From a virus (taxonomy: Duplodnaviria > Caudoviricetes), in IMG/VR virus record IMGVR_UViG_3300023283_000096, positions 1-62,894 of that record: 62,894 nt of DNA; one strand, written 5' to 3'. Position 1 is the stretch's first letter; every line of letters starts with the position of its first letter. The position numbers were made by a program, and so were the translations under genes. Under the pieces are notes generated by a model. That model saw only the letters and a program-made list of their open reading frames with translations. It had not been told where the DNA came from and searched no databases. Of the stretch, positions 1 to 61,125 are shown piece by piece.

Positions 1-127
1 AATTTCAGTTGAGCACATAGTCAATCCTCCTCGTTTGCAATTTTCAGAAGTACGTCAGCGTGGCACCTGAGCGGTGCGCACCAGCAGATAAGGTTTTTGC
101 CTTTTAGTTCGGCTTTGGCTTGCGCCA
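1..127. repeat. Terminal direct repeat, copy 1 (circular overlap)
   Basis: Identical to 62768-62894; 127 nt equals a common assembler k-mer, so probably a circularisation overlap. Confidence 0.95.
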
Positions 128-284
128 CCAATTCAGGCTTCGACCTTATCCATTTCTCATACGCGGCTATCACTTCATCGCGCGTACCACCCCTACCGGA
201 TCGGAAGGGATTACCATATTTCGTGGGCCTACCCACATACACGCCATTTGTTTCGCCACGTCTTTTATTTAGTACTTTCACCAT
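21..284 (-). CDS. DUF4326-family protein
   Basis: VYVGRPTKYGNPF and LKGKNLICWCAPLRCHADVL motifs; AGGAGG RBS 6 nt before ATG at 284. Confidence 0.8.
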   Translation of the reverse strand: MVKVLNKRRGETNGVYVGRPTKYGNPFRSGRGGTRDEVIAAYEKWIRSKPELVAQAKAELKGKNLICWCAPLRCHADVLLKIANEED

Positions 285-347
285 TTTCATCCTCCTGATT
301 AAACAACAATCAACTGCCAGCACCCATTGCCGGCAGAGCAACCAAAT

Positions 348-380
348 CTCATCAAACGCGCGACGCCTCCGGCGGAGCGC
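348..380 (-). promoter_or_regulatory. Conserved 33-bp early-gene leader motif, copy A
   Basis: 30/33 identical to 58667-58699 with a 24-bp perfect core. Confidence 0.6.
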
Positions 381-424
381 CCTGCGTCCCCACGGGCATA
401 GGCGTACAGCCTCGGCTACAGCAT

Positions 425-456
425 AAAAAAAGCCCCGACGCCGAAGCGCCGGGGCT
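425..456 (-). terminator. Rho-independent terminator
   Basis: AGCCCCGGCGC-TTCG-GCGTCGGGGCT stem (cUUCGg loop) ending in a T7 run on the - strand. Confidence 0.9.
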
Positions 457-462
457 GGGTGG

Positions 463-708
463 TTAGAATGCCGGCGGCTCGAAGTTCGAGCCTAGATCGT
501 GCCACTTGGTCAGATCGACCTGGCCTGCCTCGAGCACGGCCTTGCGGGTCACCGCAGCCTGCCACGGTTCATCGAAGCTGGCATCGAGGGTCAGTACGTC
601 TATGACCTTGTTCGGCTTGGTGCGCCGGAACAGCTTGAGTGCATGGGGGTAGTCATCATCGTATGCCACGGTGTCATGCTCGGTCAGCGTGTAGGTATTG
701 TTCGACAT
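463..708 (-). CDS. Hypothetical early protein
   Basis: 81-aa ORF with GGAG RBS, followed by a terminator. Confidence 0.75.
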   Translation of the reverse strand: MSNNTYTLTEHDTVAYDDDYPHALKLFRRTKPNKVIDVLTLDASFDEPWQAAVTRKAVLEAGQVDLTKWHDLGSNFEPPAF

Positions 709-1010
709 ATCTATTTCTCCAATCGTTTAAGTTTGTCCGCCAGCACCCGCTGCCGGCAGATCACTCAATCCCCCTTAGCCGCGGGCGAGCTATGCGAGCT
801 CGCTGATAAGAAGGTTCAATTCACGCCCAGGGACTCAAGCTTCTTACGCGCTGGGCCTGAAACGAATCGGGGGTTCGAAGTTGGCGGTTTAGGGGAGAGC
901 AGTCACAGCACCTTAGTACCCTGAATTTGGCAGAATTTACCCCGCCACCGAAGTTCCAGTGGAATTTACCCCGGGAAGCCCCTTAAGCCCCTTAAGCTGG
1001 CAAAGCCCGC

Positions 1011-1039
1011 TTGACACCCAGCTCCAGCTCCACTAGGCT
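1011..1039 (+). promoter_or_regulatory. Sigma70-type promoter
   Basis: TTGACA-17 nt-TAGGCT. Confidence 0.7.
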
Positions 1040-1045
1040 GTAGCT

Positions 1046-1138
1046 GCAGGACGTTCCCTCCCAGCGCCCTGCGACATCACTCCTCGCTAATCTGAGCGGG
1101 GCTAACCTTGAGCCCGGGCTTGTTCCGGGCTCTTTTTT
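1046..1138 (+). ncRNA. Putative small RNA with anti-SD motifs
   Basis: Between a promoter and an intrinsic terminator; three hairpins; CCCTCCC loop and ACTCCT; no + strand ORF. Confidence 0.55.
1110..1138 (+). terminator. Rho-independent terminator
   Basis: GAGCCCGG-GCTTGTT-CCGGGCTC followed by T6. Confidence 0.85.
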
Positions 1139-1148
1139 GGGCTATACT
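1120..1148 (+). promoter_or_regulatory. Sigma70-type promoter for the late operon, embedded in the terminator
   Basis: TTGTTC-17 nt-TATACT just upstream of the first late gene. Confidence 0.5.
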
Positions 1149-1173
1149 CGAGCCCATGCTGTATTGAAAGGTT

Positions 1174-1572
1174 TTGCCAGTGAAACCGATCCGTTACCAG
1201 ATCCACGTCTACCAGAATGCCTCGTGGCGGCTGCAGGCGACGTTCAAAGACCCACAGGACACTCCACTGGACCTGTCCGGCCACGAAGGCATGCTGGTCG
1301 TGAGGCAGTCTGTCGCCGCCCCCGAAGCCGTGCTGCGCGTCGACAGTACTTCAGGCAACGTGATCCTGACCGCTGATAGCGAGAACAACATCACCATCAG
1401 GCTCTCAGTAACCGAGACCGATGAGCTGCCGACGTCCAACCGTGAGATCGACGACTGGGTCTACGAGTTCCTGATCTGGGAGACGGCCAGCCCCGAAGAC
1501 ACGACCACCCGGCTGCTCGAGGGTAGCTTCCGCGTCTCACCCGCTGTGGCCCGGGAGGATGATCCGGCATGA
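1174..1572 (+). CDS. Virion structural protein (BppU N-terminal-like fibre adaptor)
   Basis: PLDLSG...LVVRQ and YEFLI...RLLEGSFRVSP pattern; first gene of the fibre cluster; start could be GTG 1180. Confidence 0.55.
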   Translation: MPVKPIRYQIHVYQNASWRLQATFKDPQDTPLDLSGHEGMLVVRQSVAAPEAVLRVDSTSGNVILTADSENNITIRLSVTETDELPTSNREIDDWVYEFLIWETASPEDTTTRLLEGSFRVSPAVAREDDPA

Positions 1573-2162
1573 GCACACTCGAGATCACCGAGAACAACCA
1601 GACCGCTGAGTTCAACATCACCGAACAAAGCGTCGACATCACTGAGGTGCTCCAGACACTCCAGATCAGCGCCTCGGACTCAAGTCTGGTGCTCAACGAG
1701 GTCAACCAGAACCTCGAAATTGTCTCGCCGGCCCAGTCCTCGCTCGAGCTCGTCGACCAGACCTCGAGCCTCGAGATCATCCCCGACGCCGTCGTCCTCA
1801 ACCAGACGTTCCAGAGCGGGTCAAGTCTGCTCAGTGTCGTTGCCGGTGAAACGCTGGGCGGGCACCGGGCCGTGTACGTCGAAGATGGCGAGGCGTTTTA
1901 TGCCAGCCCCGGCGACGATATCTCCGGCCAGGTGGTGGGCATCACGACGGGCGCGGCGGGCGCAGGTGCCCAGGTCAACGTACAGTTCGCCGGTCAGATG
2001 GACGAGGCCGGGTGGGAGTTTTCCCCCGGGCCGGTCTACATTGGCGCCGACGGTACCCTGGTCCAGAACCGGCCTGCAGCTGGTTGGATCATCAACATCG
2101 GCGTGGCGGTGACTCCAACGCGCCTGCTGATCAACAAATCCATGAGCATAGAGGTAGCTTGA
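1569..2162 (+). CDS. Fibre/decoration protein
   Basis: N-terminal ~9-aa beta repeats; C-terminal AGETLGGHRAV...VYIGADGTL domain typical of small fibre or cement proteins. Confidence 0.6.
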   Translation: MSTLEITENNQTAEFNITEQSVDITEVLQTLQISASDSSLVLNEVNQNLEIVSPAQSSLELVDQTSSLEIIPDAVVLNQTFQSGSSLLSVVAGETLGGHRAVYVEDGEAFYASPGDDISGQVVGITTGAAGAGAQVNVQFAGQMDEAGWEFSPGPVYIGADGTLVQNRPAAGWIINIGVAVTPTRLLINKSMSIEVA

Positions 2163-2163
2163 C

Positions 2164-2682
2164 ATGGCGGACAAATACATCAAGCGCGGGACTGGCAGCG
2201 CGGACTTACAGGAAGTCGAAGGCCAGGACACCAGTGCCGGCGCAGGTGATGCCGGTAAAATCGTCGCGCTCGATGCGGCGGGCAAGCTCGACGGCACCCT
2301 GTTCCCTTCAGGCTTCGGTGAAGAGACGATCACACTGACGGCCTCCGAGGCGCTCAGTGCCGGAGACTTCGTCAATATCCACGACGATGCCGGCACGCCC
2401 AGCATGAGGAAGGCCGACGCCACATCGACGGGTAAGGCCGCCGACGGGTTCGTCGTGACCTCGATCAGCTCGGGCAACACCGGGGCGTTTCATCCGATGG
2501 GGGCGCTGAATGACCAGCTCACGTCGCTGACCGTCGGGTCGATTTATTACCTGGCCACCACGGCGGGTACGGCTACGACGACCCGGCCGAGCTCGACGGG
2601 TAACGTGATCCAGCGCGTCGGGCGGGCGGTCAACGCCACGACGATCGACACGGGTGACTATAACGTCGTAGAGATCCTCTGA
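2164..2682 (+). CDS. Fibre/decoration protein
   Basis: GKIVALDAAGKLD and ASEALSAGDFVNI...RKADA...ADGFV motifs; context. Confidence 0.6.
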   Translation: MADKYIKRGTGSADLQEVEGQDTSAGAGDAGKIVALDAAGKLDGTLFPSGFGEETITLTASEALSAGDFVNIHDDAGTPSMRKADATSTGKAADGFVVTSISSGNTGAFHPMGALNDQLTSLTVGSIYYLATTAGTATTTRPSSTGNVIQRVGRAVNATTIDTGDYNVVEIL

Positions 2683-2683
2683 T

Positions 2684-5467
2684 ATGCCCGCGCGGCGCGT
2701 CCTCATCGAGAGCCTCGATGCTGTTGACTTCAAGCTCGACGCACTTACTACTGACGATGTCGTAGAAGGAGCAGACCTCTACTTCACCGACGCTCGGGCA
2801 CAGGCTGCTATTGACAAGGCTCACGTCGACAGTCTCAATGTCGACGCGGATACGCTGGACGGCCAGCAGGGCGCGCACTACCTTGATCGCTCAAACCACA
2901 CAGGCACCGAGCCGGACAGCGCGATTCCGGAGTCGGCTGTTACGCAGCACGGTGACGGGCGGTATGGGCAGCTCGCCACAATTAACACTTGGACCGGACC
3001 GGATCATCTATTTGACGGGAGAGTAGTAGCAGGCGATGGGACCTCTGGTACATCTGGATCAGGATACTCGCTCAAGTTCCCAGCAGATGGCAGTTATAGG
3101 ACGTGTGTCATTGTTGACAACGACGACGAAATAAAAATCGGGAGTGGAATATGGACTGCTGTCTATTTTCAGACTGCTAGTGGTGACGAGTTAAGAGTAG
3201 GCGGCGGGTTCAAGGTCGGATTTCCCGTTGGCGGTCTGCAGGGGTTTGGAACCGTCAATGCCGAAGAACTCTACGAAGACGGCAACCGCGCCGCTACGCT
3301 AGATGCAAGCGACAATCTTGTCGCAAAGTCCGTAGGGCGCAGTCTTGAATCATTCCATAAAGCCTACAAGCCCCGCCGTCTCATCGACGCCCACGGCGTC
3401 TCCGACCTTATCACATGGGCCAGAGCCAGCGAGGGTACGCGCGTAAATGAGCAGGGGCTGATCGAGACTGTACCCGCCGACACACCACGCATAGACCATG
3501 ACCCGCTGACCGGGGCGTACCGTGGAGTGCTGGTGGAGGAAGCGCGGACGAACGAGCTTCTATACTCAGAAGATTTATCGAATGCAGAATGGAATAAGTT
3601 TTCCAATGTATCTATAGGTACGCCTATATCCAAGATCGGACTGAGTTTAGATGAGATCATCAATGATTCGACCGATCCGTACAAGGCCGTGAATCAGGGC
3701 AGCATTACGCTTGCCGATCAGGAATATGCAACCTGTACAGCTTACGTTACTGCCGGATCATCGGATCGTACACTTCTTGGAGTTTGGGCAACTTCTGGGA
3801 CTGCTCGCCTTGGATTGAATTGGGATTCTTCTGGCGTTCCGACACCCTTTGCCGAACAAAGCTTCTGGGACTTGGACCTTGTTGAGTCTGATGTCGAGTT
3901 GCATAACGATGGTGTCTATCGTGCCACGATTATCATGCAAAATATATCCGGTGCTTCAACGACAATAACTGCTCGATACTACGTCACGTGGTCTACGGCG
4001 CCAGCGGCGACCGGGGAAAACACTTTCGCGGGCGGCTTTCAGTTAGAGCTTGCTAGAAATGCATCCAGCTACATCCCCACCGAAGGCACCACCGCGACCC
4101 GCGCCGCTGACCTCGCCGTAAGCGACGGGCCGGACTTTGATGCATGGTGGAACCCGGCGGGCGGGGTGTTTGTTGCGGAGTTTATAAGCGCATCTGCAAA
4201 CGACGGCCGGGTAATTGGGGTGGACAACGGAAGTAATAGTGAACGGATTCAGTTCGACGTGGAAGGTGAGGTAATAATAACGGAGAATGGCAACACGCAA
4301 GCCGCATGGTCAAATAGTCTTGCACAAAATGTAACACATAGGGCGAGTATCCGAGTCGCACAAGATTCATTTTTGCTTGCGATAGATGGAGCAATCGACC
4401 ATACAGATAGCAGCGTTATCATTCCCGATGTGACTCAATTACAAGTCGGAAATGATTCTTCAAATAGACACATGAACGGCGGCATCCGCCAACTGACCTA
4501 CTACCCCTTCCCCGACATGCCCGATGCTGACATCGAGTTCGCATCCGTGGTCGGCAGGGATATCCTTGGGGTGGAAAATACGCAGGAAATGCCCGCGCTG
4601 GAAAAGCAGTTTACGCAAGCAGTTGTAGATGAGTTGATCACGGGGCGCTGGACGTTTGACGCGCCAGTAGACTTTTTTGGCGATATATTCATCGGCTCTC
4701 CACCTGACTTCCTGGCGGTTGAATCGTCTCCGGGGGAAGTTACGCTGTCGGTGCCAGCGTCGGTTGATATGGTGTTTGTGGCGGACACGACAGAAGTACT
4801 GCGGATGGGACCGAATGGAGTTACGCAGTTAACGGTCGGCTCCCCCAGCCCCAATTTTATAGATCCTCAGGGGCCGGGCGACATAAATGCTGAACGGGTG
4901 ATGGTTGACGGGGATGATGTCATGACGACGCAGGGTGTATCCGACATTAGCGTCGTCGCGCCGTTAGAGACCCAAGTGGCGCTGACGGATATTGGAGAAA
5001 GCCACGTACTTTCAATTAACTCTGACGCATTTAAGGAAAGGGGGGTAACCGTCTCAACCTCAACAGATTCGACTACTAATATAAATACTTCGTCATGGGC
5101 AGAATTACCTTTCAATAGCACCTTATTATTGACTTTACCAGGCGCTAATACTATTACCAACGCAATTATTGTGCCGCCGGGGATATACAGAGTGTTTGGC
5201 CAGATAACATACTCGACATTAGTGGCGAGAGCAAACGTTGGTATATCCATAGCGCTTGATGGTGTCAGAACTACTGCTATAGGTGCTGGCGGGTATGTTA
5301 GATCATCGAGTGGTCATAATGAAGGTTCATCGATAATTGAGGATTATGTGGCGTTCTCGACTGACACGACTATATCTTTAATGGGGATCCAACTTGCGGC
5401 ATCTGGGACAGTTACTTTACGCTCGGGCCAATCTAGATTTATTATAGCTAGGGAAGGACCGCTATGA
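2684..5467 (+). CDS. Tail fibre / receptor-binding protein
   Basis: EGADLYFTDARA and ADTLDGQQGAHYLDRSNHTG fibre motifs; central RASEGT...VEEARTN carbohydrate-binding/LamG-like module; beta-rich C-terminus. Confidence 0.8.
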   Translation: MPARRVLIESLDAVDFKLDALTTDDVVEGADLYFTDARAQAAIDKAHVDSLNVDADTLDGQQGAHYLDRSNHTGTEPDSAIPESAVTQHGDGRYGQLATINTWTGPDHLFDGRVVAGDGTSGTSGSGYSLKFPADGSYRTCVIVDNDDEIKIGSGIWTAVYFQTASGDELRVGGGFKVGFPVGGLQGFGTVNAEELYEDGNRAATLDASDNLVAKSVGRSLESFHKAYKPRRLIDAHGVSDLITWARASEGTRVNEQGLIETVPADTPRIDHDPLTGAYRGVLVEEARTNELLYSEDLSNAEWNKFSNVSIGTPISKIGLSLDEIINDSTDPYKAVNQGSITLADQEYATCTAYVTAGSSDRTLLGVWATSGTARLGLNWDSSGVPTPFAEQSFWDLDLVESDVELHNDGVYRATIIMQNISGASTTITARYYVTWSTAPAATGENTFAGGFQLELARNASSYIPTEGTTATRAADLAVSDGPDFDAWWNPAGGVFVAEFISASANDGRVIGVDNGSNSERIQFDVEGEVIITENGNTQAAWSNSLAQNVTHRASIRVAQDSFLLAIDGAIDHTDSSVIIPDVTQLQVGNDSSNRHMNGGIRQLTYYPFPDMPDADIEFASVVGRDILGVENTQEMPALEKQFTQAVVDELITGRWTFDAPVDFFGDIFIGSPPDFLAVESSPGEVTLSVPASVDMVFVADTTEVLRMGPNGVTQLTVGSPSPNFIDPQGPGDINAERVMVDGDDVMTTQGVSDISVVAPLETQVALTDIGESHVLSINSDAFKERGVTVSTSTDSTTNINTSSWAELPFNSTLLLTLPGANTITNAIIVPPGIYRVFGQITYSTLVARANVGISIALDGVRTTAIGAGGYVRSSSGHNEGSSIIEDYVAFSTDTTISLMGIQLAASGTVTLRSGQSRFIIAREGPL

Positions 5468-14871: not shown

Positions 14872-14901
14872 TTGACAGGTACGGGCTGAGTATCATATAC
14901 T
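14872..14901 (+). promoter_or_regulatory. Sigma70-type promoter for the capsid gene
   Basis: TTGACA-18 nt-TATACT. Confidence 0.7.
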
Positions 14902-19618: not shown

Positions 19619-22380
19619 TGCGGTTTACAGGTCCGGTTAGAGTTACGATTCGGGGCGATCAGGACCTCGGGCAGCGATACATCACCGTTGCCCGAACTTT
19701 TTTGGGGACCGTTGTCAACCAGCTGGGCCTTGCTAAAAACGAGGGTGGCCTGGCAAGTCGCCTGGTCACGCTACCGGACGGTGCCAGGATTCTGGTTCGC
19801 CAAGTAACTGAAAACGTTCACGACATTGTTATCGATGTACAGTCTGTTACAAGTGCGCTGTTTACAGAGGCGCTGCAGTATATGTTTTCTGTGCGGGGGA
19901 TAGGTAGTAAGACTGCGCCTGTAGTTGAACAGAATGGTCGCGGGGTTGTTACTTCAGCCTGGGCGGGGCTATTTGTCGCTTTCACTGGAGCAGGTGAGGC
20001 AGACATTACTGCCGTACCAATCGTGTCTACGCGGGAAGATATCCAACCTACTGACGAAGATAGCTGGGTATTTATCGGCGCCACGGGTACGACGGCAGCA
20101 GAAATAGCTGAAATGCTTCCGATCCCCCGTTATGAGATTGCGCATGCTGAGGCCATGCATTTGTTTCTGCCCGATAAGCAAAATATTGTACACGCCCCAT
20201 GGATGCAAAAAGGCCAGCCTCCTTATAATGCCTACGCGTGGTCTAAAAGTACGGAATGGAATGCCGGCGTCGGTAGCGGGACTGTTACGGAGGGGGGCAA
20301 TACTTTTGTTACATCCCAAGAAGAGTTTTTTCAATTCGGCGCAACTCCTACAGACATTGGATACGAAACAGACTTAGCCATATATCGGCCCCCCGAAGCA
20401 CAAGGAGTATTGACTAGCGGACAAAGCGTCGGGGGTGTGCCCGATATGGATTGGTATACATCATATGCCCGTGCCGTAGTTGATGAGCGCGAATTCGGCA
20501 TCGCAATTGATGCGAATCAAGTTCTGCATGTTTGGCCTACTTCTGCTGAAGGTACTGCTGAGCCCGATCCAACTTATGCGGATCAGGCTATAAAAACATC
20601 TGTCGCACCAGAGTTTGTTCGTTCTCAGCAACTTAGTTTCCCAGAGGGCGTTTATTTCCAGGACGTGTCACACAGAGACAGCGATCTTGACGGTTTTGGC
20701 GACGATCTTTTACGTCGGTCAGCGAGATATACATGGGTTCCTGATTCTACGGGTCTGCGGTTGGCAACAGTAGCTGTTTCGTATTTGACAGGCTTCACTT
20801 TGTTTGAGGATTCTGCTGGGACGAATCCAGCTACCAATGCCCCTGAATTGTTTTTTGGGAAACTGGATGCACGGGATCGTAGTTTGCGCCCTTACAGAGT
20901 AACAAAACCGTTGGTGCTGGAGTTGCAAATTACGATCACGATAACTGGGTTGACAGACGCAGAATTCGATGTTGATCATTCAGTAGAGGAGGTAGAGGTT
21001 AGCAGCACTTTCGCTCCTTCCCAAGTTGGCTACGCCGCTGAGGGAAATGCCTGGGGCGCGGAACAAGATGAGTTGCTTATTGCCGGCTTCACTGGGCATT
21101 TCTATGATGGTGAACCTTTTCAGCCCACAAGTGACGTCTCCAACGTTATAAATTGGCGCCACCTTACTTTGTCTGGTTTTGCAGTAAGGCACTTCGCGCT
21201 CGTATCTTCTCCTTTCGGGGTTACAGGCTCCGGTACTCGTAGGCAGGCTTATAACGAACTAAGCCGCTATGAGACTTATCCGATAGCGGATTTTGATGAT
21301 ACAGATTTTGGGATTTCTTTGTCCGTTGAGGCCACGTTTGATGTAATCCGACGAGACAGTAGCGTGATTTTTTCGAGGTGTGTACGAAGGAGGCTCGGTG
21401 AAGTTTTATTGGCTGATTACTTCATGGCTGAGGTTGCTGGGCTTGACTTACGAACTGGAATTGTTGCCTTTACGATGTCCGAGTCAGAATTCGATCAACG
21501 GTGGCCGGATCTTGAATCTATCGAGGGGGTCATCTTCGAGCACCAGATCAACAGGGGGTTTGTAATACTACGTGGGAGTGAACAGGTCACATCCTGGTTC
21601 CAAAAGGACGGGATAGAAGGTTCGCTGGAACATACCCCCCTAGGCAGTAAGATACCGAAGACTTATACTGCTGCAGTATCTACCCACGGAGTAGGGGCTT
21701 TAACTTCTGATTTGTGGTCACAAGATTATGTGTCCGCAATTTTTAATGAAGTTGATGGGGGCAACATGAATATCAATTGGAGATTTTTCGTAGACTTCCC
21801 TGAAGGCCATCGTTATTACGAGACACTGTACCAACGGCATTTTGCGGCTACTGGATTCATTGGCGGCCTTGTTGCCAACGAGGATGTTATAAGTTTCACA
21901 GGAGCCTTGTTTTGCCTTACTGATGGAATGCTTCGTAGTGAGGCTGAAAGTAACAAAGCCGTCGATGGTCAAACAGCGTTTACCAAAGAGCTAGATTTCC
22001 TGCAGTTTAGGAACATATCTACGACCCACAAGGCTGTATGGGAACAGGCATTCAACAGGACTATCGATCTCGAACGGTCTGTACATGTGGAACCAGAACT
22101 CGTAGAAACTGTTGCCCTGTCAGGCAGTGAAACCCAGGAAATATACCGCAATAACCTCATTATCCGCGACAGCGGCGGGACCGATATCCACAAGATCAAT
22201 ATGGACGAGGCGTGGTTCTGGTTATATCCCGGGTTCAGGGCCTGGCGCGGGTACGGTTATGGACTGTTTTCACAGGACTTGGCAAATCCAAGTGGTGATG
22301 CTATACTTAGTCGAGAGCAGCAGACGCTGCTCGATCCAGCTTTTAGTGGACGCGCGTACGGGTATACAGCTGATGATTAG
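19618..22380 (+). CDS. Large tail/virion protein (920 aa)
   Basis: Long coupled ORF in the tail cluster; lower GC. Confidence 0.6.
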   Translation: MRFTGPVRVTIRGDQDLGQRYITVARTFLGTVVNQLGLAKNEGGLASRLVTLPDGARILVRQVTENVHDIVIDVQSVTSALFTEALQYMFSVRGIGSKTAPVVEQNGRGVVTSAWAGLFVAFTGAGEADITAVPIVSTREDIQPTDEDSWVFIGATGTTAAEIAEMLPIPRYEIAHAEAMHLFLPDKQNIVHAPWMQKGQPPYNAYAWSKSTEWNAGVGSGTVTEGGNTFVTSQEEFFQFGATPTDIGYETDLAIYRPPEAQGVLTSGQSVGGVPDMDWYTSYARAVVDEREFGIAIDANQVLHVWPTSAEGTAEPDPTYADQAIKTSVAPEFVRSQQLSFPEGVYFQDVSHRDSDLDGFGDDLLRRSARYTWVPDSTGLRLATVAVSYLTGFTLFEDSAGTNPATNAPELFFGKLDARDRSLRPYRVTKPLVLELQITITITGLTDAEFDVDHSVEEVEVSSTFAPSQVGYAAEGNAWGAEQDELLIAGFTGHFYDGEPFQPTSDVSNVINWRHLTLSGFAVRHFALVSSPFGVTGSGTRRQAYNELSRYETYPIADFDDTDFGISLSVEATFDVIRRDSSVIFSRCVRRRLGEVLLADYFMAEVAGLDLRTGIVAFTMSESEFDQRWPDLESIEGVIFEHQINRGFVILRGSEQVTSWFQKDGIEGSLEHTPLGSKIPKTYTAAVSTHGVGALTSDLWSQDYVSAIFNEVDGGNMNINWRFFVDFPEGHRYYETLYQRHFAATGFIGGLVANEDVISFTGALFCLTDGMLRSEAESNKAVDGQTAFTKELDFLQFRNISTTHKAVWEQAFNRTIDLERSVHVEPELVETVALSGSETQEIYRNNLIIRDSGGTDIHKINMDEAWFWLYPGFRAWRGYGYGLFSQDLANPSGDAILSREQQTLLDPAFSGRAYGYTADD

Positions 22381-28672: not shown

Positions 28673-30301
28673 ATGAGTACACCGCAAGAAGAGATTCAGC
28701 GCCGTATTGCTGAGCAGGATCGGCGTCGCCGGCAGAATAGCAATGCCAGCCCACTACGAAATCAAGATGCTCTTGACGCTGCCGAAGCCCGCAACGAAGG
28801 CCGGTTCGAAGCAGTGCAGAGCTTGTCGCCCGGGCGTCGTGCGCTCGACTCGGCAGAAGTCCGTGCGCGCCGCGCTGCCGGCGAAGAAAACCCGGTTGGC
28901 TCAGCTGAGCTCAATGCCCGTGAGCGGGCTCAGGGGCTCAGGCAGCAGAACCCGGGTGGTGCGGCATCGTTCAACGTCCCGCAAGGCGCCGAGGTGCTAT
29001 CAAGCTCACAGGGTGCTCAGCTCACCCGTACAGAACCGACGACTGGACGCACGATCGTCCGGGGCGACGACGGCATCGAGCGCTTCCAGTCAACGGTAAT
29101 TGGTGGCGGTGCGCCCCAGCGTGGTCTGCGTACTGGCGGCGGGGCGAGCAACGCTGGGCTAATCAACGCCCGGCTGGCAACAGGTACCGGGGCTCAAGGC
29201 GAGCCAGTGTTCGACAACCAGTCGATCGCTGAAGGCGTCGATGACGGGACGATCCCCGATCCCCAAGTCGAGCGCCGGCGCATTGCCCGCAACCAGGCCA
29301 TCGACGAGCGCAACCGCCCGCGCACGCTACGTAACGAGGTAGCCGCAGGGATTACGTCGCAGGAAGAGGCCAACCGGCAGACACTCGAGCGGAATGCCCA
29401 GCTCGAAGCAGCGACGCGGGCTAGTGGTAACCGGGACGGTGGCGGCAGTGAGGGCGGTGGTGGAGATAGTGCCCCTATTGATCTTGGCTCGGACGATTCG
29501 CTGCAGGCGCAGAAAGAAGTGGCGCAGTCATTCCGTACAGGCGAAGATGCTCGGCAATTTACAGACGGCGAAGTCCGGCTGTTCAACGCTGAAGCCCGGG
29601 CTGCACGCGATGCTGGTGATCTTCCACCGGATATCACACCGGAGCAGCTCGGTATGCTCCAGGCGTTCACGGCTGAGATCCCGAATCTTGGTGACGGGAT
29701 TCTCACCACACCGCCGAACGAGCCTATCGGCCCGGGTATGGCTTTCTCATTGATCCAGAGAGCTGCGTTGAATCCCGGCGAAGATACTATCCAGATTGGT
29801 AGTGCGAAGCTGGATACTTCTAGGCTCACGGGTCGCGCGGCTTCGGCTTTCCAGGCGAGCGTAAATCGTGTTCGAGGCAACCTGAATCGTAGCGCCGCGG
29901 CTGAGGTTCTGATCAATGGTGTGGATTCGGGGGATATCAGCGAGCGGGCTCAAGAGACTTTGAATGCCGATCTGGAACTGCAGAAGCAGCGGCAGTTGGA
30001 GCTCGTTAATGCACAACAGCCACAATTACGGCGTAGTTCGCCTGATAGCAATACTGTGCCAAATAGGTTTATAGGTGGCTCAGAACGGGCCGGTCGTTCT
30101 GTTATTCGACTTCCGCTCAACGCTACTGTCCGCAGAAACCTCAGCCAAGCTGGCATCCAGGTTCAGGAAGGCGACACGCTGCGCGATGTTCGGCAGCGCA
30201 TCGAAAACCAGCAGGTGACGCCAGAACTGGCCGACCAGTTTGTCGACCGAACTCTGACCGAAGAAGAACAGCAGCAATTGAGTCAACGACGCAGTGGCTA
30301 A
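28673..30301 (+). CDS. Putative internal virion (ejection) protein
   Basis: Ala/Gln/Arg/Gly-rich 542 aa directly before the giant gene. Confidence 0.55.
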   Translation: MSTPQEEIQRRIAEQDRRRRQNSNASPLRNQDALDAAEARNEGRFEAVQSLSPGRRALDSAEVRARRAAGEENPVGSAELNARERAQGLRQQNPGGAASFNVPQGAEVLSSSQGAQLTRTEPTTGRTIVRGDDGIERFQSTVIGGGAPQRGLRTGGGASNAGLINARLATGTGAQGEPVFDNQSIAEGVDDGTIPDPQVERRRIARNQAIDERNRPRTLRNEVAAGITSQEEANRQTLERNAQLEAATRASGNRDGGGSEGGGGDSAPIDLGSDDSLQAQKEVAQSFRTGEDARQFTDGEVRLFNAEARAARDAGDLPPDITPEQLGMLQAFTAEIPNLGDGILTTPPNEPIGPGMAFSLIQRAALNPGEDTIQIGSAKLDTSRLTGRAASAFQASVNRVRGNLNRSAAAEVLINGVDSGDISERAQETLNADLELQKQRQLELVNAQQPQLRRSSPDSNTVPNRFIGGSERAGRSVIRLPLNATVRRNLSQAGIQVQEGDTLRDVRQRIENQQVTPELADQFVDRTLTEEEQQQLSQRRSG

Positions 30302-33300
30302 CGGCGACGATAAGCGAAGCCCGGCGTCGCTGCGCAACAAACGAGCGTTCGAGCGCGCGCAAGCCGAGGCTCAGGAAAAAGAGCGCCGCAAAGCTGCGCT
30401 GGGCTTGTCAGGCCCTGTGTCCGAGCCGGAGCTACGCCAGCTCGAGCGCCAGGCTCAGCGCTCCGGTGGTCTGCGCCAGCGCAACATCGACGAGGTACGT
30501 CTTGACCAGGCCATCGCCCAGGACGAAGCTCAGGCTCAGCAGCGTCAACAGGTGCGTGAGTCTCCGCTGCGCCAGAACAGCGCACCGAGCCTGAGCGCCG
30601 CGCCGGCACCGAATGCTGAGCCTAACCCGTTCAGCCTCAGTGCGCCTATCGGTGACATCGACCAGCTCGAGATCGATACACGTAACCGCCAGCGCAATAC
30701 GTTCCAGCAGGGGCTGGCCCAGGGCCTGCAGAATCTACGCGCCACGGTGCCAGCAGTCGAGTCGATCGGGCGCGGCCTGCTGGGCGACGAAGAGGGCGCA
30801 GTCGAGGCCGCTGAGCGCGCGCAGGAGGCCACCGAGCTCGGTAGCCGGCTTGGCCCGCAGACCTCATTTCAGGGCGTGCTCGACGGGGAGAATAGTTTCG
30901 GTGACTTCCTCGCCGGCCTGGCGGGCACGCAGGCGCCGAATATTGCCAGCATCGCCTTGAGCGGTGGCGCGGCAGGTCTGGCAGGCCGTGCACTGGGTGG
31001 CGCGGCGGTGTCGAGCACGGCCCGTGCTGTCGGCCAGGTGGCAGCTCGGCGTGAGTCGATCCGCAGAGCGCAGCGCACAGCCATCGACCAGGCCAAGGCC
31101 GCCGGCGAGACGATCAGCCGCTCACAGGCTGGCCGGCTCGGCCAGGCTACGACCCGCGCTAACGCGGCGAAAAAACAGCTCGCCGATGTCTTGGCCCGCA
31201 AGCGACGATTCCAGGACCGCGGCACGACGATCGGCCAGGCCGGCGGTGCCGGCTCGTCCATCGCCGCCAGCGTGGCGCCCGAGACGACCGACATTATCCT
31301 CGACGAAGACGCCGGCTCGATCCAGCAGCGCGCCGCAGCCGCAGCCGGCGGTGCGGGCGCGGCGGCTGTGATCAACACGCTGCCGGTCATGCGCCTGTTC
31401 AAGCGCATCGGGCTGGGCACGCGCACCGAGCGCCTGACCCGCCAGCTGGCCGAGCGCCGCGGCCTGCTGCGCAACACTGCCGGCGAGACGTCGAAGCAGG
31501 CGGCGTTCGAGGGCGGCACCGAGGTCGCCGAGGGGCTGATTATCCGCGCCGCGCACAACCAGCTCAACGACAACGTCAGGATCTTCAGCGACGAGGCCAT
31601 CGCCGGCATGATCGAAGAGTTCGCCGCCGGGGCCATCCTGGGCGCTGGTGGTGGTCTGGCCAGCGGAGCGTCGATCACGATCCGTCAGCCTGGGCCGACC
31701 GAGGCGGCCCTCGAGGAGCGCAGCGCCGAGCGCCAGGCACAGAGCCGTGACCGGGCCGTGGACTTCCTGCCTGAAGAAGAACAGGCCCGGCGAGAGCAGC
31801 CGGTCAGCCAGCGCGTGGATCAGGCCGCTGACGGCTTCATCGGCGAAGTAGTCCTCGAGCAGCGCGCGGACCCGCCCAGCTTCGGCGAGGCCCAGGAGGT
31901 CGGCCAGGCATTCCGGGTGCTGCTCGACCCCAGCGCCGATGCCGACGCCGTGGTCCAGGACGAGGCCGGCAACGAGATCAGTGCTGCCGAGGCGGCCACG
32001 CGGGTACTGACCGAGCGCTTCGGCATCGACATCGAGGCTAATCTGGACGTGGCCCGCCAGGCACTGGCTCGGGGTGAGCAGTTCCAGATTGACCGGCTGG
32101 CCGCAGCGCTCGATGAGCGCGCAGCGATCGAGGAGATCGAGGGTACGGTCCCCGAAGGCCAGCCGGGCTCTGAAGAGTTCCGTCTGAACCGCCAGGCGCT
32201 CAACGAAGAGCTTGAGTTCAGGCGTGAGCGGCTACAGGAGATTCTCAACGAGGGCGTGCCTACGGTTGAAGAGACGCTTGATCCGGACGCCGCGCTGAGG
32301 GCACAGGAGCGCCGCACGCAGCTTCAGGAGGAGATTGAAGCCGAAGAAGCTGCTGACCAGGAGGGCATCGACCCCAGGGGCGACGCGCTGGAGGAGATAC
32401 CCAGCCGTGCTCGGCCCGTGTTGAGTACTGAGCAGGGCAACACGCCGCCGGTGGCGCTGAGGGCTAACCAGGGGTTGCAGGGTTCGAATATTCTCGGTCG
32501 AGTGTTCGTTAGTGAAGCGACGCCTCAAGGCGGTAGGCCCGAGAGTCAACGGGGCGCTCAGAATGTAGTTGACGCGCTCAACAACGAGACCGGTTCGGAA
32601 GGACGTTTCGAAGTCCGACCTGCCGGCGACGTACTGGTGCGCGAGCTCAACGCTCGTGCCGGACGTGATGACTCTGAGACCGCGGCAGCGAGCAGTGAAG
32701 TCCAGAGAAATGTAATTGCCGAAGCAAAGAAGATTGAAGAGGCGAACTCGAACATAACAGAGGGCAACACGATAGCCGCGGCAAGACAGCGCATTTTTGA
32801 TACTGCCAGCGAAGCAATCGAAGATATCGACACCCAGCTGGAAGCCGGGGTTGATGCGGACACGCGTGCTCAGCTCGAGCAAGAAAAAGCGAGAGCAGAA
32901 GCTGATTTACGTAATATCGAGTTTCTGGGTTCCCTCCAGTTCCTCAACCAGTTCGACACCGTCGTCGAAGAACAGCTCGGCGCGTCGTTGACCGGTGCCG
33001 ATCCACTGGCGCTGACACCGGACCAGCTGCGCTCTCGTGGCATCGTCCAGCCGGTGCCGCGGGGCAGGCCACTGGAGCCGTTCGAGCTGCGCGTGCGCGA
33101 CAGCCAGGGCGAGTCACGCATCGTCAACCTGGTCTCACTGACCCAGGAGACGCTTGGCCGGCTGGTCGGCGACGGGCTGGCTGGCCGCGGTGGTACTCGC
33201 GAACAACGCCAGCGCCGCGGCCAGCAGCGCGAAGAGGGCTCGTCGGGTCCGAGTGTCACCCGCGAGAACATCGGACGGGCGGTCACATCAGGCCTGGCTG

Positions 33301-36300
33301 AGATTCTGACGCGCAACAACATACAGCTCGACCTGCAGGATGGTCAGCAGGTGGACCAGAACCAGGACGCTCTCGACGCCACGCTGCGCCAGCTCGGAGA
33401 GGTCCAGGGGCAGATCGAGACGCTCAGGAGCCAGGACCAGCCGGTGCCCGACGCGCTTACGCAGCAGGCCGCTGAGCTCGAGCAGAGCCTCGCCGACGAG
33501 TTCCAGGCCCAGATCAACGCCGTGGCCATCAACCCGCAGACCGTGGCGTTTCGTAGCCGCGGCGGGGTCGAGACAACCGTAGGCGGCTCGACACAGGATG
33601 GTGTGGCCGCGTTCAAAGCCGAGATCCGCAACGCGACGAATATCCGCCCGGTGCAGGAGCGGGTGCGCCAGCTCAAGGCTGAGCGCGACGCGATTCCCAA
33701 GGGTCAACAGACCGAGCGTCGCAAGGCGTTAACCGAGCAGATCAGTGCGGCGAACCAGAAGATTCGTCAGCTGCGGGGTGCCCGGCAGGAGACCAAGCGC
33801 GTCAAATCCGGTGAGACCCGCTCGATCGACAGCCGTGTCGATCAGCTCCAGCGGCGCGTCGACGAGCTGCGCGGCCTGCTCGGGGCGAATATCAGCAGGA
33901 AAGAATTCAAAACTGAGCTGACTCGGGCACTCAAGCGGGTTGTGGGGTCGATCAGCTTAAATGGTGTGCGTACTGAGCGGCTGGCCATCACCTCCACGGC
34001 AGACCCGAACGCCGCACCGACGTTGCCGGTGGTCGAGGGCAACGAGCGCAACATTGCCAGGGACCAGGCCAAGGCCGACAAGGCCGCGGAGCTGGCCAAG
34101 GCCAGTGGCGGGCAGGCCAAGTACATCGGCCAGGGCTCGGCGCGTTCATCGACGAACCTGTACCGGACGGTCTACGGGCCACGGGCCAACCCGGGAACGT
34201 TTAACGCCAACGATGCGGTGTTCCTGTCTGTCGAAGGTAACCGGCGAGGTTCAGTTGGCTTTGAGCCGGTACGGGGCGAGGTCAAGCGGGCGATTAACGC
34301 GGGCGTGCCGATCATTACTGACAACCCGAAGAACCGCGGCGAGACGTCGACGAAGGCCACACAGCGGTTTGAGAGTCTGGGCCGGCGAGTCAGGGCTGCG
34401 CGCAAGGCTCGTGAGAAAATGCAGGCCCAGGCCGAGCGCGTGCAGGCGCAGATCAAGAAGACGCTCGAACCAATCGCCGCACAAGAAGCTGTAGGCGACG
34501 CTGCGCCTATTACCACGCAAATCGGTGATGTTGACCGTGAGATTCGTAGTCTGCAGAGTTCACGGGAGAGCGTGGAGCTTGATACCAAGCTACTGGTAAA
34601 TTTGCCTGACACGACCGTGGCCACACGGCGCAGGCAGATGAAGCAGCTGGTCGACAAACTCGAAGAAATCGACGGGGCACTGAACAAGGCCCTGATGCGT
34701 AAAAGGAGCCTTGTCGAAGAACTGGGCCGCACTCAGCGCCCGAACACGTCTGGTCCTGCTGCCGCACGTGTACGGCGTGCACAAGAACGCCTGGCTCAGC
34801 TGCGCACGGCGACGAAAGCCTTCGAACGGCGAGCTGAAGCCTTGGCGCGACAGCAAGAAACAGCTCGAGACTTCAACACCGGCGAGCGCGCCGCGGCGAA
34901 TTTCCTGCGCGAGAATGGCTACGAAGAGACTGTCGAGGGTGAGCTGTCGATCTGGCGGCGCCGGCGCAACGACGTGCCGTCGTCCGAGCCTGTCGCGCAG
35001 CCTGAGCCTGCACCGGCTGCCGAACCTGAGTTGCCGACGATCACGGACGAGGAGTTTTCGACGTTCAGGAACACACCGATCAAGTTTACTCAGGAGAAGA
35101 TTGCGGAGCTGCGCGATAACCGCGTGGATGCTGAGCTGCAGGCGAGCCCGGACGGACGTTTCAGAGAACAAATTCCCCAGCGGATGGCTGAACAGCTGGT
35201 TCGCGAACGGGGCTTCAGTGCCAAGCAGGCGGCGAACACAGTCACTGAAATTTTCGACATTGTCGATGACTTCGTAGGCCGTTTCGGTTTGTCCTGGCCA
35301 AATGTGGTTTTGAGCGATGCGTCTGGAGGGCTGGGTTTGTATATGCCCCCGTCGAATACGGTCTTCCTCAATATAAAAAGATTAGGTAAAGACGGTCTTA
35401 CTGTTGAGAATCGCCAGACACTCATTCACGAACTCAGCCATGCGCTTGAATACGACGCGCTGCTTAATTCGTCGAAAGAAGAGCTGTCTGCGTTGGTCAG
35501 GGAATATAACAAGTGGCGCGCCCAAGCCAAACGTCGTATCGACGCTGCTACGACCGATGATGCAAAAGTGGAAGTTCTTGAAGCGTTGCTAGGTGAAAAA
35601 CGGGGCCAGCCGTCGGGCGTTCCAAGCGACCTCAAAAAAGCCGAAACCTACGTACTCAGCCCCCGTGAGTGGTTCGCGGACAATGCTACACGTATGATCC
35701 TCGAAGGCAGCGCCAACAATGTCAACGACCCGCTGGCGCTGGGCGTACTCAAGCGCCTGGCCGACAAGCTCAAGGAAATGTTTGGTATCTTCTTCAAGCG
35801 CTCGGCATCAACGCCGGAGCTGCGCAAATTCCTGATCAAGATGCGCAATGCGGCGAATCCCGAGCTGGAGACAGAGCCGACGCAGCCGCAGGACTTCCGA
35901 GTGCCCGAGAAGAAACTCTCCGAGGCCGAGCAGCGCCGCCTCGAAGAGCTCAAGGCTGAAGAGCAGCGCGTCATGGAGCGCAAGCTCGAGTTCGAGCAGC
36001 TGCGCAAGCAGATCGAGGAGGCTGGCACGTCGAACACGGTCAAGGTACTCGAAGCCCAGATCCGCACGCTGCAGCTGATTCGCCAACAGCAGATCGCCCA
36101 GCGCCGGGAAGCCGAGGCCCTGCAGCGCACGCCTGAGCAGCGTCAGGCCGAGGTACTGCGCGGTGACCAGCGCGACGAGCGCGCCGAGGAACAGGCCGGC
36201 GATTCAGTCGTGGATAACCCCGGCGCCCAGGAAGCTCAGGATGCAGCGCTGCCGCAGGACCAGCGCATCGCACCGCCGCCGTGGATCAAGTCTGCCGACG

Positions 36301-39300
36301 AGCGCCGGTCATTCAGCCCACCGTCGTTCGCGCAGCTGCGCAACGAGCAGAACCGGCTGGTCCAGGATCTCCAGGATGCCGGTGTCGAAGGGCTGGACGT
36401 CAAGATCGTCGACTGGTCGGATGCTACTGAAATGTTCGACAGCATCACCGCCAAACGCAAGACCCTGGAGAACGTCGAGTCGCTGAGCCGAGTCAAGGAT
36501 GGCCGGGTCGAGATCTGGGTCAACGAGGCCATGTTCCAGGACAACCCGTCGGGCCGGCGCGCAGCACTGAATAACGAAGTCGCACGCGCTGCGCTGCTGC
36601 AGCGGGCGAGCCAGCTGACAGAACAGCAGGCTGCCGCTGCGGTCAAGGCGCTGGGATTCAAGGGCGGCAAGGCGCAGTTGATGCGGGTGCTCGGCGCGCG
36701 TACAGGTGGGCTGGGCGCGCTGCAGCGTCGGGATCGTAATGCCGCGCGCAGGCTCTACGAGGCACTGGCCGGGAAGGTGGATAAGCCGGGCAAGAATTCG
36801 TTCTTCAAGGATGTGCGCAGCCTGGCGCGCGGGCTGATCAAGGCGACGGACTCGACGATCTCCGAGGCCAGCCTGATCCGTGACATTCCGAAGGCGACGG
36901 GGCGCGTGGGCAACGTGCAGCGGTTCTCGTCGATGTGGGCCGAGGGCAAGCGCCGCTCGCGGTTCATGAACACACAGTCCAACGCCAACAAAGCCGCCAA
37001 GGCTGCCCTGGAAGGCGAGGCGCGGCCCGCGAACAAGAAGCGCAAGCCGCCAGACCCGCCGAGCAAGCCTCCACCGCCACAGGCCGGCTCAGGCGGCTCA
37101 GGCAGCGGCGGTGGGCGTCGAGGACCCCCATCAGCGGCACCGGCCTCGCCTGACGACGCCTACGGGGCCTACTTCATGCTCGGTGACACGTTTACCGTCC
37201 AGGGGTTCTATGCCTCGCGGGATCTGATCATCTCGAAGCTGACCGACGGCGAGCGTGGCACACTGGCCCGGGCGCTGCAGTCGCTGCCGGTGCGCCGCCA
37301 GATGCTCGACTTTTTGACCGAGCAGGGCATCGACGGGCGCCAGCGCGAGGTGTTCATGGACGACCCGTTCAACCAGATGGCGCTGGGCTACCAGCTGTTC
37401 GCCGCGGGCCGGCTGCAGCTCGAGGAGTCGCCCAGCCGGGTCATGAAGGGCCTGAACACGTTCGCCCACAAGGTCCTGGGCACGCTGAAGACGACTGAGC
37501 AGGCCACGGAGATCATGGCCGCACTCAGCGACGCCCGGATCGAGGCACGCCAGTCCAGGCTGCAGCGCGAGGCCAAGGAGGGTTCGTTCCTGGCCGCTGG
37601 CGAGTATGCGCTGACCTCGGGTGACCTCACGGCTATGTACGACATGCTTGACTCGGCAGGGCTGTTCAAGGCCAAGCGGCGCAAGAACATGAGTGAGACC
37701 GACGTGCGCCAGGTGCTCGAGCAGGACCCTGAGATTGGCCGGCTGCCGAAGCTCGTGCAGCAGCGTATCGCCAAGGATGTCAAGGCCGGGGTGTTCACTG
37801 AGAAATTTACCAGTGAGATGGCCCAGCTCAGCGATTTCACGCTCGACCCGGATGCACAGTTCGAGGTCCAGAAGATCGTAGGCAACAACAAGTTGCAGCG
37901 CGCGGCGCGGGCTGTGGCCGCGGCAATTCAGTTCCTGGGTCCGGTAGGCCGGCTAATCGGCGGCGAGGCGATGCGCGCGCGGTTCACGGGTAACGCGGCG
38001 ATCATCGACTTCATGAACTCGATCATGACCGACGTGACCTCACAGGGGCGCGCAGAGTCAATGATCAACGCCAAGCAGCGCGCCAAGAGCCGGTTCGACT
38101 CACAGATGCAGAACATCTTGAACAAGCTCACCGAAGAGCAGCAGGTCGAACTCATGGAGGTCATGCAGGACACCAAGGCCCGGTCGAAGGACCCGGAGGT
38201 GGTCGCAGCACGCGAAGAGATGGCCAAGTTGACGGTGCGGATGCGCAACTACGCACTGCGGGCGGGGTTGAAGCTGGGGGATCGGGGGCGGGATTACGTG
38301 CCGCTGGTGTTCGACCCGGAGGCGACGGCCAAAAAAGCCGAAGAGTTGATCGAAGACTGGATGCGGCCTCGGTTCAAGCGGGGGTGGGAAGAGCTGGCAA
38401 GAGAGCGAGGGTTGATCAAGGCGAAGGAGAAGCTGAGCGAGGCCGATCGGCGCCAGATGGTCATCCGTACGGTCAACGCCATTGCCACCGAGAACAACGG
38501 GCTGGTCGACAGCGGGGCGCTGGATGCGACGAATGTCTCCGAGACGCCGCCGCGGGTCAACGCCATGAACAAGCGCGAGCTGGCGTTCATCGTCGACGAG
38601 GGCGACGCGACGTCGTCGAAGCTGCTGGCCAGTGTGCGCAGCAAGGACCTGAACGGCACCTACGCGGTCTATATTTCACAGCTGGTCAAGCGGGCGGAGT
38701 ATGCGCGGACGTTCGGCGCGGATGGAGGGAAGTTCAAGCGCCAGGTGGCCCGGGCGCGGGAACTGGGTGCGACGCAGGACGACATTGAGTTGATGAACAA
38801 CATCGCCGCGTCGGCGTTGGGAAGGATCGGCTTAGAGGTCTCCCCGTTCTGGAAGGCCGTGATGAAGCCGATTGAAGCGGCGTTTCAGAAGCCGTTGCTC
38901 AATGAACAGGGCAAGCCCTTCGCCACTGCGGAGGCTGCGAGTAAGGCAAAGAAGGCTCAGAAGGTCAAGGGGCGGGTAATCGAGTCGCCGCAGGGCGGAG
39001 GGTTCATTGTGGACCGGGCCATTACCAACGACCCGGTGCGGTTCCGGCAGGCCATGTCATGGATCGTGACCTACCAGAACCTGAGGATTCTTTCGATGGC
39101 GGCGTTTACCAACGCCGCGGATATGGCGGGGCTGTTTTTCAGGACCGGAAGCCCCGGGGCGGCGCTGAAGGGTTACAAGGCGGGGCTGAGTGACGTCATG
39201 CGCTCGATTCAGAACCGGAAGCTGCCGCCCAAGGAGAGGGCCGCGCAGATGTCTGAGCTGCGCAAACTGGGCCAGGATCTGGGTATCATCGAGTTCGGCG

Positions 39301-58499: not shown

Positions 58500-58523
58500 A
58501 GTGTTACTCCTTACTGTGGTGTG

Positions 58524-58607
58524 TTAAGCCGCAGCTAACAGGGCTGCGACGGTCATGGCGCTCTGGATCAGGGTGATCAGAGCGAGTACTACTTTGATAA
58601 AGAACAT
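58524..58607 (-). CDS. 27-aa hydrophobic micropeptide
   Basis: GAGGAG RBS; MFFIKVVLALITLIQSAMTVAALLAAA. Confidence 0.5.
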   Translation of the reverse strand: MFFIKVVLALITLIQSAMTVAALLAAA

Positions 58608-58666
58608 TTAAGGTCTCCTCGTTACCGGTGTGTTCAGCCAGCCACCGCGGCCAGCTCACCCGACCA

Positions 58667-58699
58667 CCCATCAGGCGCGCGACGCCTCCGGCGGAGCGC
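58667..58699 (-). promoter_or_regulatory. Conserved 33-bp early-gene leader motif, copy B
   Basis: 30/33 identical to 348-380. Confidence 0.6.
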
Positions 58700-60242: not shown

Positions 60243-60273
60243 GGCGGACCTCGAACTGTTAATTAATATGAAC

Positions 60274-60282
60274 ATTATAACA
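60274..60282 (-). promoter_or_regulatory. Extended -10 promoter
   Basis: TGTTATAAT ~30 nt upstream of the ATG at 60242. Confidence 0.55.
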
Positions 60283-60299
60283 CGACAGTGCACGAAAAT

Positions 60300-61080: not shown

Positions 61081-61087
61081 TGTGAAT

Positions 61088-61125
61088 AAAAAATTGGAGC
61101 TCAGCCCTGGGCAGGACTGAGCTCC
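61088..61125 (-). terminator. Rho-independent terminator
   Basis: GGAGCTCAG...CTGAGCTCC followed by AATTTTTT after the last gene of the upstream early operon. Confidence 0.7.

Follow-up and report, generated by a model that had tools for sequence, protein, structure and literature searches.

A small-RNA-like transcription unit joined head-to-tail to a probable late promoter in a distantly KPP25-like phage

The window analysed here, a whole virus record of 62,894 bases, contains upstream of its late operon a small-RNA-like transcription unit that is well formed, statistically non-random and joined head-to-tail to a late promoter. That this orphan, uncultured phage encodes a small RNA at this place is plausible but unproven. 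As to its function, the reading to which we incline, tentatively and with somewhat less than even confidence, is that of an independent small RNA acting in trans by anti-Shine-Dalgarno (anti-SD) pairing, mainly on host mRNAs. What was observed in silico comprises both promoters, the RNA fold, the terminator, the absence of an ORF, a loop motif that is unique in the genome and a terminator/-10 arrangement that recurs. The original prediction of a small-RNA gene was borne out in its anatomy, the analysis finding a promoter, a structured RNA of about 92 nt lacking an ORF, a strong terminator and an exposed CCUCC core.

Results

Genome and setting of the control region

The + strand between 1180 and 40388 carries structural genes (tail protein, large terminase, portal, major head protein and an ORF of 3364 aa), and replication genes together with many small genes are encoded on the - strand, from 40371 round to 708. 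With the gene blocks opposed in this way, 709-1179 is the single divergent control region of the genome, and the small-RNA candidate occupies its right half. The first late gene (1180-1572, + strand; 130 aa, phrog_1084), which heads a structural operon of about 39 kb, has a weak SD (AAAGG) and a GTG start, the position of which was set by the N-termini of relative proteins. The nearest named phages are the Pseudomonas phages KPP25, phiR18 and kin (genus Kochitakasuvirus), with a major head protein identity of only 50%. Judged from these sequence relations, the phage seems to be distantly KPP25-like, not lambdoid, and is apparently a lytic podophage.

The first and last 127 bases of the genome (1-127 and 62768-62894) are exact copies, which points to a circular assembly of about 62.77 kb; this 127-bp 'direct terminal repeat' looks like the assembly overlap of a circular or permuted genome. 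A DUF4326 gene (21-290, - strand) adjoins the junction of the 127-bp ends. The converging gene blocks overlap by 18 nt at 40371-40388 and a terminator between them is absent, so that late and leftward transcripts would each extend antisense into the opposite block. The 3364-aa ORF (30294-40388, + strand) has an elevated G+C content of 0.59-0.67 (0.63-0.67 in four of five 2-kb windows) and no Pfam match; we presume that it resembles the giant virion proteins of Bcep22-like podophages. A mini-ORF of three codons (ATG CTG TAT TGA; 1157-1168, + strand) precedes the first late gene, its end being 11 nt away from the GTG.

Two further repeated elements were noticed near the left end of the record. 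A 21-nt hairpin, CTGCCGGCAnnGGGTGCTGGC, is present in exactly two copies (739-759 and 316-336, both - strand), located 25-30 nt upstream of the starts of two leftward genes (708 and 290, respectively), and may be a shared 5'-UTR or processing element; the sole nearby substitution in a second strain, 749 G>A, falls in the loop of this hairpin. A 24-nt exact repeat, GCGCTCCGCCGGAGGCGTCGCGCG, which contains a GGAGG and is itself followed by TGATG, occurs at 354-377 and 58673-58696 (both - strand), one copy lying in the leader of the DUF4326 gene and the other before a 55-aa gene (58504-58671).

The genome also has an AT-rich non-coding region of about 850 bp (60250-61100, read on the - strand). 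It contains three repeats built on TGTACA-N6-TGTACA, flanked by TGTTCAA/TTGAACA and spaced 46 and 58 bp apart, as well as several near-consensus sigma70 promoters, for example TGTTATAAT, and it is preceded by tandem terminators at 61093 and 61038. The true early control region and/or the origin probably lies here.

Tandem promoters P1 and P2

Two sigma70-like promoters are present on the + strand where the original prediction had placed them. P1 (1011-1039) consists of TTGACA (1011-1016), a 17-nt spacer and TAGGCT (1034-1039), with a predicted transcription start at about 1045-1047. P2 (1120-1148) consists of TTGTTC (1120-1125), a 17-nt spacer and TATACT (1143-1148), and its -35 sits in the loop and 3' arm of the terminator. 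In a PWM scan of every site on both strands, P1 ranked 10 and P2 ranked 18 of 376,392 site/spacer combinations, the hexamer frequencies used being approximate E. coli values. Neither promoter was called by a strict consensus filter, because each has one hexamer that matches the consensus at 3 of 6 positions; in P1 this is the -10. Both lie within 140 nt in the sole divergent intergenic region, and it is unlikely that two top-ranked sites should stand in tandem, on the correct strand and in one control region, by chance.

The best-scoring sigma70-like promoters of the genome are those at 14872-14901 (+ strand, TTGACA-18-TATACT), just upstream of the major head gene, and at 22279-22308 (+ strand, TTGGCA-17-TATACT). 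The TATACT -10 is identical in these two and in P2, and P2 has in common with the promoter of the major head gene, the best-scoring of all, also the three bases that follow the -10 (TATACTCGA). The late operon seems to own promoters of one type, and P2 is its probable promoter.

Upstream of P1, direct repeats were found at 933-996 (+ strand): GAATTTACCCCG twice (933-944 and 962-973) and CCCCTTAAG twice (979-987 and 988-996). These sequences occur at no other place in the genome, and a regulator of P1 or of the leftward promoter may bind to them.

A recurrent terminator/-10 arrangement

Of 98 T-runs, three are followed within 0-6 nt by TA[TC][AG]CT, where 0.42 would be expected. Each of the three comes after a strong intergenic terminator on the sense strand, at 1133 (+), 431 (-) and 56787 (-). 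The terminators at 431 and 56787 are each followed by the identical sequence CTTTTTTTATGCTG, and there the -10-like TATGCT begins in the U-tract. The recurrence of the arrangement at three terminators suggests that P2 is probably real and that the RNA is probably a transcription unit of its own. Since P2 lies downstream of the terminator, the P1 transcript need not read through, which again favours a separate small transcription unit. The proposal of a second promoter overlapping the terminator has gained in strength from this recurrent design and from the match between P2 and the capsid promoter in the -10 and discriminator.

Predicted fold of the RNA and its terminator

The predicted RNA has a length of about 92 nt and contains no plausible ORF, and a start codon preceded by an SD is absent from 1045-1138. 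The predicted start of P1 coincides with the base of hairpin 1 (1045-1073, + strand). The MFE fold reproduced this hairpin as it had been drawn; a CCUCC anti-SD core is exposed in its 7-nt loop, CCCUCCC (1056-1062), and the unpaired probability of the loop is about 0.9 or more. The following 8-nt linker, ACAUCACU (1074-1081, + strand), is predicted to be unpaired; together with 1082-1085 it makes up CACUCCUC, another anti-SD-like motif, part of which is buried in a stem. Hairpin 2 (1082-1101, + strand), likewise part of the original prediction, is present and has a stem of 7 bp (CCUCGCU and AGCGGGG) closing the loop AAUCUG. The 3' linker CUAACCUU (1102-1109, + strand), also 8 nt long and unpaired, directly precedes the intrinsic terminator (1110-1138, + strand), which consists of a stem-loop at 1110-1132 with nine pairs (seven of them G-C) and a 5-nt loop, followed by T6. 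This terminator, already recognized as strong, was found independently by a terminator scan and by our own script, which gave it an energy of -18.5 kcal/mol. The RNA is predicted to end here, and the genome as a whole has about seven strong sense-strand terminators, this one included.

With the terminator included (1044-1136), the fold has an energy of -39.7 kcal/mol and a z-score of -3.06, and none of 200 shuffles was as good. For the two hairpins alone (1045-1103) the z-score is -2.19, with 5 of 200 shuffles as good. The MFE structure makes up 30-40% of the ensemble. In the terminator stem 16 of 18 positions are paired at more than 90%, and the two loop-closing positions at 60% or more.

The element had alternatively been proposed to be an attenuator controlling late genes. 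This proposal finds no footing in the fold, for the terminator stem is formed throughout almost all of the ensemble, with no alternative structure to compete with it. A classical transcription attenuator is not supported on the same ground: the mutually exclusive antiterminator structure was not found in the ensemble fold. Trans-acting small RNAs of the Hfq type have an intrinsic terminator, a U-tail of at least six residues, a single-stranded stretch preceding it and an unpaired seed; the candidate has the corresponding features in its U6 tail, the unpaired CUAACCUU, and the loop and linker.

C-rich motifs and complementarity within the genome

CCCTCCC is present in a single copy in the 62.9 kb, both strands considered, and this copy is the loop of hairpin 1. 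From the base composition about 14.6 copies would be expected; the expectation from a maximal-order Markov model is only about 1.3, so the motif is rare in general. An anti-SD core, counted as CCUCC, CUCCU or UCCUC, lay in a predicted hairpin loop in 23 of 2000 random 65-nt windows of the genome and in 160 of 2000 (8%) dinucleotide shuffles of the segment itself. The segment is unusual for the genome at about the 1% level, and given its composition the placement of the core in a loop is unremarkable. Half of the CUCCUC motif is taken up by the stem of hairpin 2.

The interpretation of GAGGAGUGAUGU as an 'RBS plus AUG' did not hold up: the gap between SD and AUG would be only 2 nt, and such a site is absent elsewhere in the genome. 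Complements of the GAGGAGUGAUGU type gave five genome matches at no more than two mismatches (5.17 expected), the sole exact one being the element itself. The complementarity of 1063-1073 to 376-386, which had been put forward as an 11-nt match to an early leader, is real and unique to both places, but it is weak, because both partners lie in predicted stems. Roughly 2-5 second copies of 11-mers of the RNA are expected genome-wide. The label 'early leader' for 376-386 turned out to be an assumption, the strongest early-type promoters being located elsewhere, at 60250-61030. A second 23-nt 'copy' at 59032-59054 was discarded; it belongs to the coding sequence of a pentapeptide-repeat gene and is for that reason a chance match.

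Search for targets

Target prediction had been suggested as a check of the trans-acting role. A scan of all called translation-initiation regions of the phage, with opening energies included, produced nothing convincing; the best net energy, obtained with the loop region, was -6.7 kcal/mol. For full-length or longer duplexes with phage RBSs, the opening cost equals the gain. With this best net interaction and the weak 11-nt match, the claim that the RNA blocks ribosome-binding sites of phage mRNAs is not borne out, and for want of a good phage target any trans targets would mainly be host mRNAs. AACCUU (1104-1109) has its complement in AAGGUU (1167-1172), where the first late gene has its weak SD; this pairing, of only 6 bp, would be possible in a read-through transcript and may be due to chance.

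Homology searches and strain variation

A blastn search with 700-1200 gave no match in 50,697 phage records, and an exact 21-nt pattern had no match in IMG/VR. The gapped motif TTCCCTCCCAG-N8-22-CACTCCTC was found in one IMG/VR, 30 GTDB-genome and 93 metagenome stretches, numbers of the order expected by chance. Of the 31 motif loci from IMG/VR and the GTDB genomes, two matched a covariance model built from the single sequence (R1), with scores of 11.4 and 7.9 bits; of 80 metagenome motif loci (from the 93 JGI stretches), none did so at E<=1. When whole records of KPP25 and four IMG/VR relatives were searched, R1 gave one match of 21 bits. It was rejected as a homologue, since it is a terminator at the convergent junction of KPP25 and lacks a C-rich loop; matches of 20-21 bits in L008 and L011, which are terminator-like and lie 5 kb past the terminase gene, were rejected as well. 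The divergent region of KPP25 contains no equivalent element and no terminator facing the late genes.

The 130-aa late protein has three relatives among 5.8 billion proteins, with identities of 99, 70 and 64%. No loci for this protein were found in IMG/VR, JGI metagenomes or GTDB genomes, and the searches with the neighbouring 81-aa and 927-aa proteins were likewise negative. For the terminase, the nearest relatives have 64% identity and are encoded on contigs that stop short of the control region.

The Infernal/Rfam search proposed at the outset gave no family at its gathering score, either in the element or anywhere in the genome. Five sub-threshold matches on this strand were all to small RNAs. 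The best was to anti-hemB (RF02837), with 26.1 bits against a gathering score of 49.5, and they include the Betaproteobacteria toxic sRNA (RF02278; 17.0 against 50), SorX (RF02784; 16.9 against 46.6) and suhB/mmgR (RF00519; 16.0 against 41). The alignments rest mostly on the terminator. The anti-hemB consensus has CCUCCC in a hairpin loop, and the shorter hairpin 2 loop of the candidate is without it.

The sequencing runs listed include none of RNA. A second strain, represented by DNA contigs, has 10 substitutions in 1-4591 on its main contig, and a low-depth contig of 374 nt adds 11 listed substitutions at 4498-4561. There was none in 1011-1148, where only about 0.3 would be expected. The substitutions between the strains cluster at 3863-3998 and 4498-4561 in the gene of the 927-aa tail protein, which may be a host-range hotspot.

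Discussion

Comparison with known small RNAs

In the available text of two reports (PMC7547250; 10.1101/2024.10.31.621285), lambda 6S and StxS are described as PR' leaders ended by a terminator, which have Hfq as a binding partner and both host and phage mRNAs as pairing targets. Like these, the candidate, described in silico only, would be a short structured RNA with a promoter just upstream of the late operon and an intrinsic terminator; the PR'-tR' layout, in which the late operon is headed by a promoter and, no more than about 100-200 nt further on, an intrinsic terminator, was recovered in silico. The 6S and StxS phages reach their late genes only via Q antitermination of that transcript, whereas here a separate P2 is present. 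In contrast to lambdoid Q control, a Q-family antiterminator was not found, and P2 would serve the late genes downstream of the terminator. Neither 6S nor StxS has sequence similarity to the candidate (cmscan, blastn).

For the alphaproteobacterial cuckoo family of anti-SD small RNAs, with NfeR1 and RSs0680/CcsR, the proposed action is RBS occlusion, and cuckoo RNAs are described as having 2-4 adjacent hairpins, each with CCUCCUCCC in a loop of 9-27 nt (PMC4615179, text as available). Adjacent hairpins, a C/U-rich anti-SD loop and a Rho-independent terminator are features that the candidate has in common with the cuckoo RNAs as described there, with Burkholderia anti-hemB (RF02837) and with the toxic sRNA (RF02278). 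Unlike the cuckoo RNAs, as far as that text defines them, it has one CCCUCCC motif in a 7-nt loop, lacks CCUCCUCCC and has AAUCUG as its hairpin 2 loop. It also differs from the anti-SD families in being phage-encoded, in having no homologues in the searches made and in its Rfam scores, which are far below gathering. Since it has neither the defining motif and loop size nor the model scores, the candidate belongs to no named family. Its supposed working principle resembles that of the anti-SD small RNAs and its position that of lambdoid 6S/StxS.

The available text on the lytic podophage LUZ7 describes sRNA1-3 as short intergenic non-coding transcripts with their own start and terminators (PMC9163698). 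Unlike the candidate, which is only predicted, they were, according to the same text, observed experimentally, late in infection by this N4-like phage. With candidate small RNAs of the LUZ7 type reported from lytic Pseudomonas phages, this kind of element would already be known. No sequence relation to the LUZ7 RNAs appeared in the phage blastn of 700-1200, which was the sole comparison. A literature search on phage-encoded small RNAs with anti-SD action gave no relevant paper, and among the KPP25 matches listed, titles and abstract openings revealed no transcript-mapping study.

Proposed mechanism

As we envisage it, 1011-1138 would be a self-contained transcription unit for the non-coding RNA of about 92 nt. 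The host sigma70 RNA polymerase would start at P1, transcribe the two hairpins and stop at the intrinsic terminator, and the late structural operon would be started separately from P2. With the -35 of P2 inside the terminator hairpin, the terminator would also protect the late genes against P1 transcription. Ribosome-binding sites of the GGAGG type, mainly those of host mRNAs, would be paired by the CCUCC core that hairpin 1 displays in its loop and, to a smaller degree, by the CACUCCUC linker, and translation initiation would fall. In its terminal hairpin and U-tail the RNA would resemble the end of chaperone-bound small RNAs. We infer from the predicted features that the RNA is made, is stable and pairs with ribosome-binding sites. 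What speaks against the small-RNA reading is first the outcome of the sequence comparisons, in which no homologue, and hence no covariation or sign of selection, turned up in the phage, IMG/VR, GTDB and JGI collections searched, no Rfam family scored at its gathering level and the KPP25 divergent region had nothing equivalent. The poor energies with phage ribosome-binding sites, the 8% of shuffles that place an anti-SD core in a loop, the Markov expectation of about 1.3 CCCTCCC copies and the one poor hexamer in each promoter count against it too.

Alternative explanations

In an arrangement of the lambda PR'-6S-tR' type, which we regard as unlikely here, P1 would be a constitutive late promoter and the RNA its prematurely terminated leader. 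A phage factor, protein or RNA, would make the polymerase terminator-resistant so that it reads into the 39-kb operon, and the leader may or may not have gained a trans function, as StxS did. The layout fits this arrangement, in that a single, very long late operon is immediately preceded by a promoter, a short structured RNA and a strong terminator, and strong terminators also occur inside operons, with genes starting 20-30 nt downstream (43415-, 56787- and 19698+), which means that read-through or antitermination must occur somewhere in this phage. A precedent exists in 6S and StxS, described in the available text as terminated PR' leaders that bind Hfq and have targets (PMC7547250; 10.1101/2024.10.31.621285). 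However, P2, a top-ranked promoter with a -10 and discriminator of the capsid type, lies beyond the stop point and makes read-through unnecessary, and the phage is KPP25-like, not lambdoid. Furthermore, no Q-, N- or sigma-like family was found by PHROGs in 41 leftward-strand proteins (E<=1e-6) or by Pfam in 36 leftward-strand and 5 small late-strand proteins (E<=0.01), weak evidence given that such proteins are diverse and a divergent one could be missed in either search. We give a similarly low probability to a purely transcriptional device, in which the RNA has no trans target and P1 together with the terminator serves as an insulator or as a tandem-promoter interference switch; in the interference version polymerases from P1 would terminate on the -35 and spacer of P2 and occlude P2 until P1 is shut off. 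This would leave about 60 nt of well-defined hairpins and the unique exposed CCCUCCC loop unexplained, and no candidate switching factor emerged from the PHROGs and Pfam searches, but the terminator and the P2 -35 do overlap physically, and the terminator/-10 modules at 431- and 56787- have no small RNA in front of them. Moreover, P1 relies on a perfect -35 and P2 on a near-consensus -10, so that a factor blocking -35 recognition would switch between the two.

Somewhat less probable than these is that the element is largely a product of chance, with a real terminator, which could for example keep antisense transcription out of the late genes, an unused P1, and hairpins and C-rich motifs that are by-products of a GC-rich spacer. 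No conservation was found in any collection searched, the P1 -10 matches at only 3 of 6 positions, the z-score of the hairpins (-2.19) is modest, and the motif statistics weaken once composition is taken into account. Set against this, two of the 18 best promoter-like sites of the genome lie here, in tandem and on the correct strand, transcription is predicted to start right at the foot of hairpin 1, and a canonical terminator closes the unit. We think it highly improbable that the RNA is a cis antiterminator of the HK022 put type, in which the hairpins would modify the polymerase so that only transcripts initiated at P1 pass this and later terminators. The hairpin pair right after the start, which we take to be comparable to put, would suit such a role, with two adjacent stem-loops from about +1 and a terminator following at once, as would the further terminators inside the late operon, such as 19698+; P2, however, makes the mechanism unnecessary, and the known distribution of put is very narrow.

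A bolder version of the trans-acting small RNA, which we consider improbable though less so than the put mechanism, would combine two effects. The tail of 16S rRNA reads AUCACCUCCU, and the AUCACUCCUC linker resembles it; an RNA made from a host-type promoter and imitating this anti-SD end, with CCUCC in its loop, could soak up host ribosome-binding sites as an RNA-only host shut-off, and its transcription, by terminating over the late promoter, could gate that promoter. If true, such an RNA-based early-to-late switch would be without a known counterpart.

Implications

To our knowledge, few regulatory RNAs are known from lytic phages. Terminator/promoter modules joined head-to-tail would be compact, reusable parts for phage engineering. 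An anti-SD small RNA encoded by a virulent phage would, if true, be a new route to the takeover of host translation.
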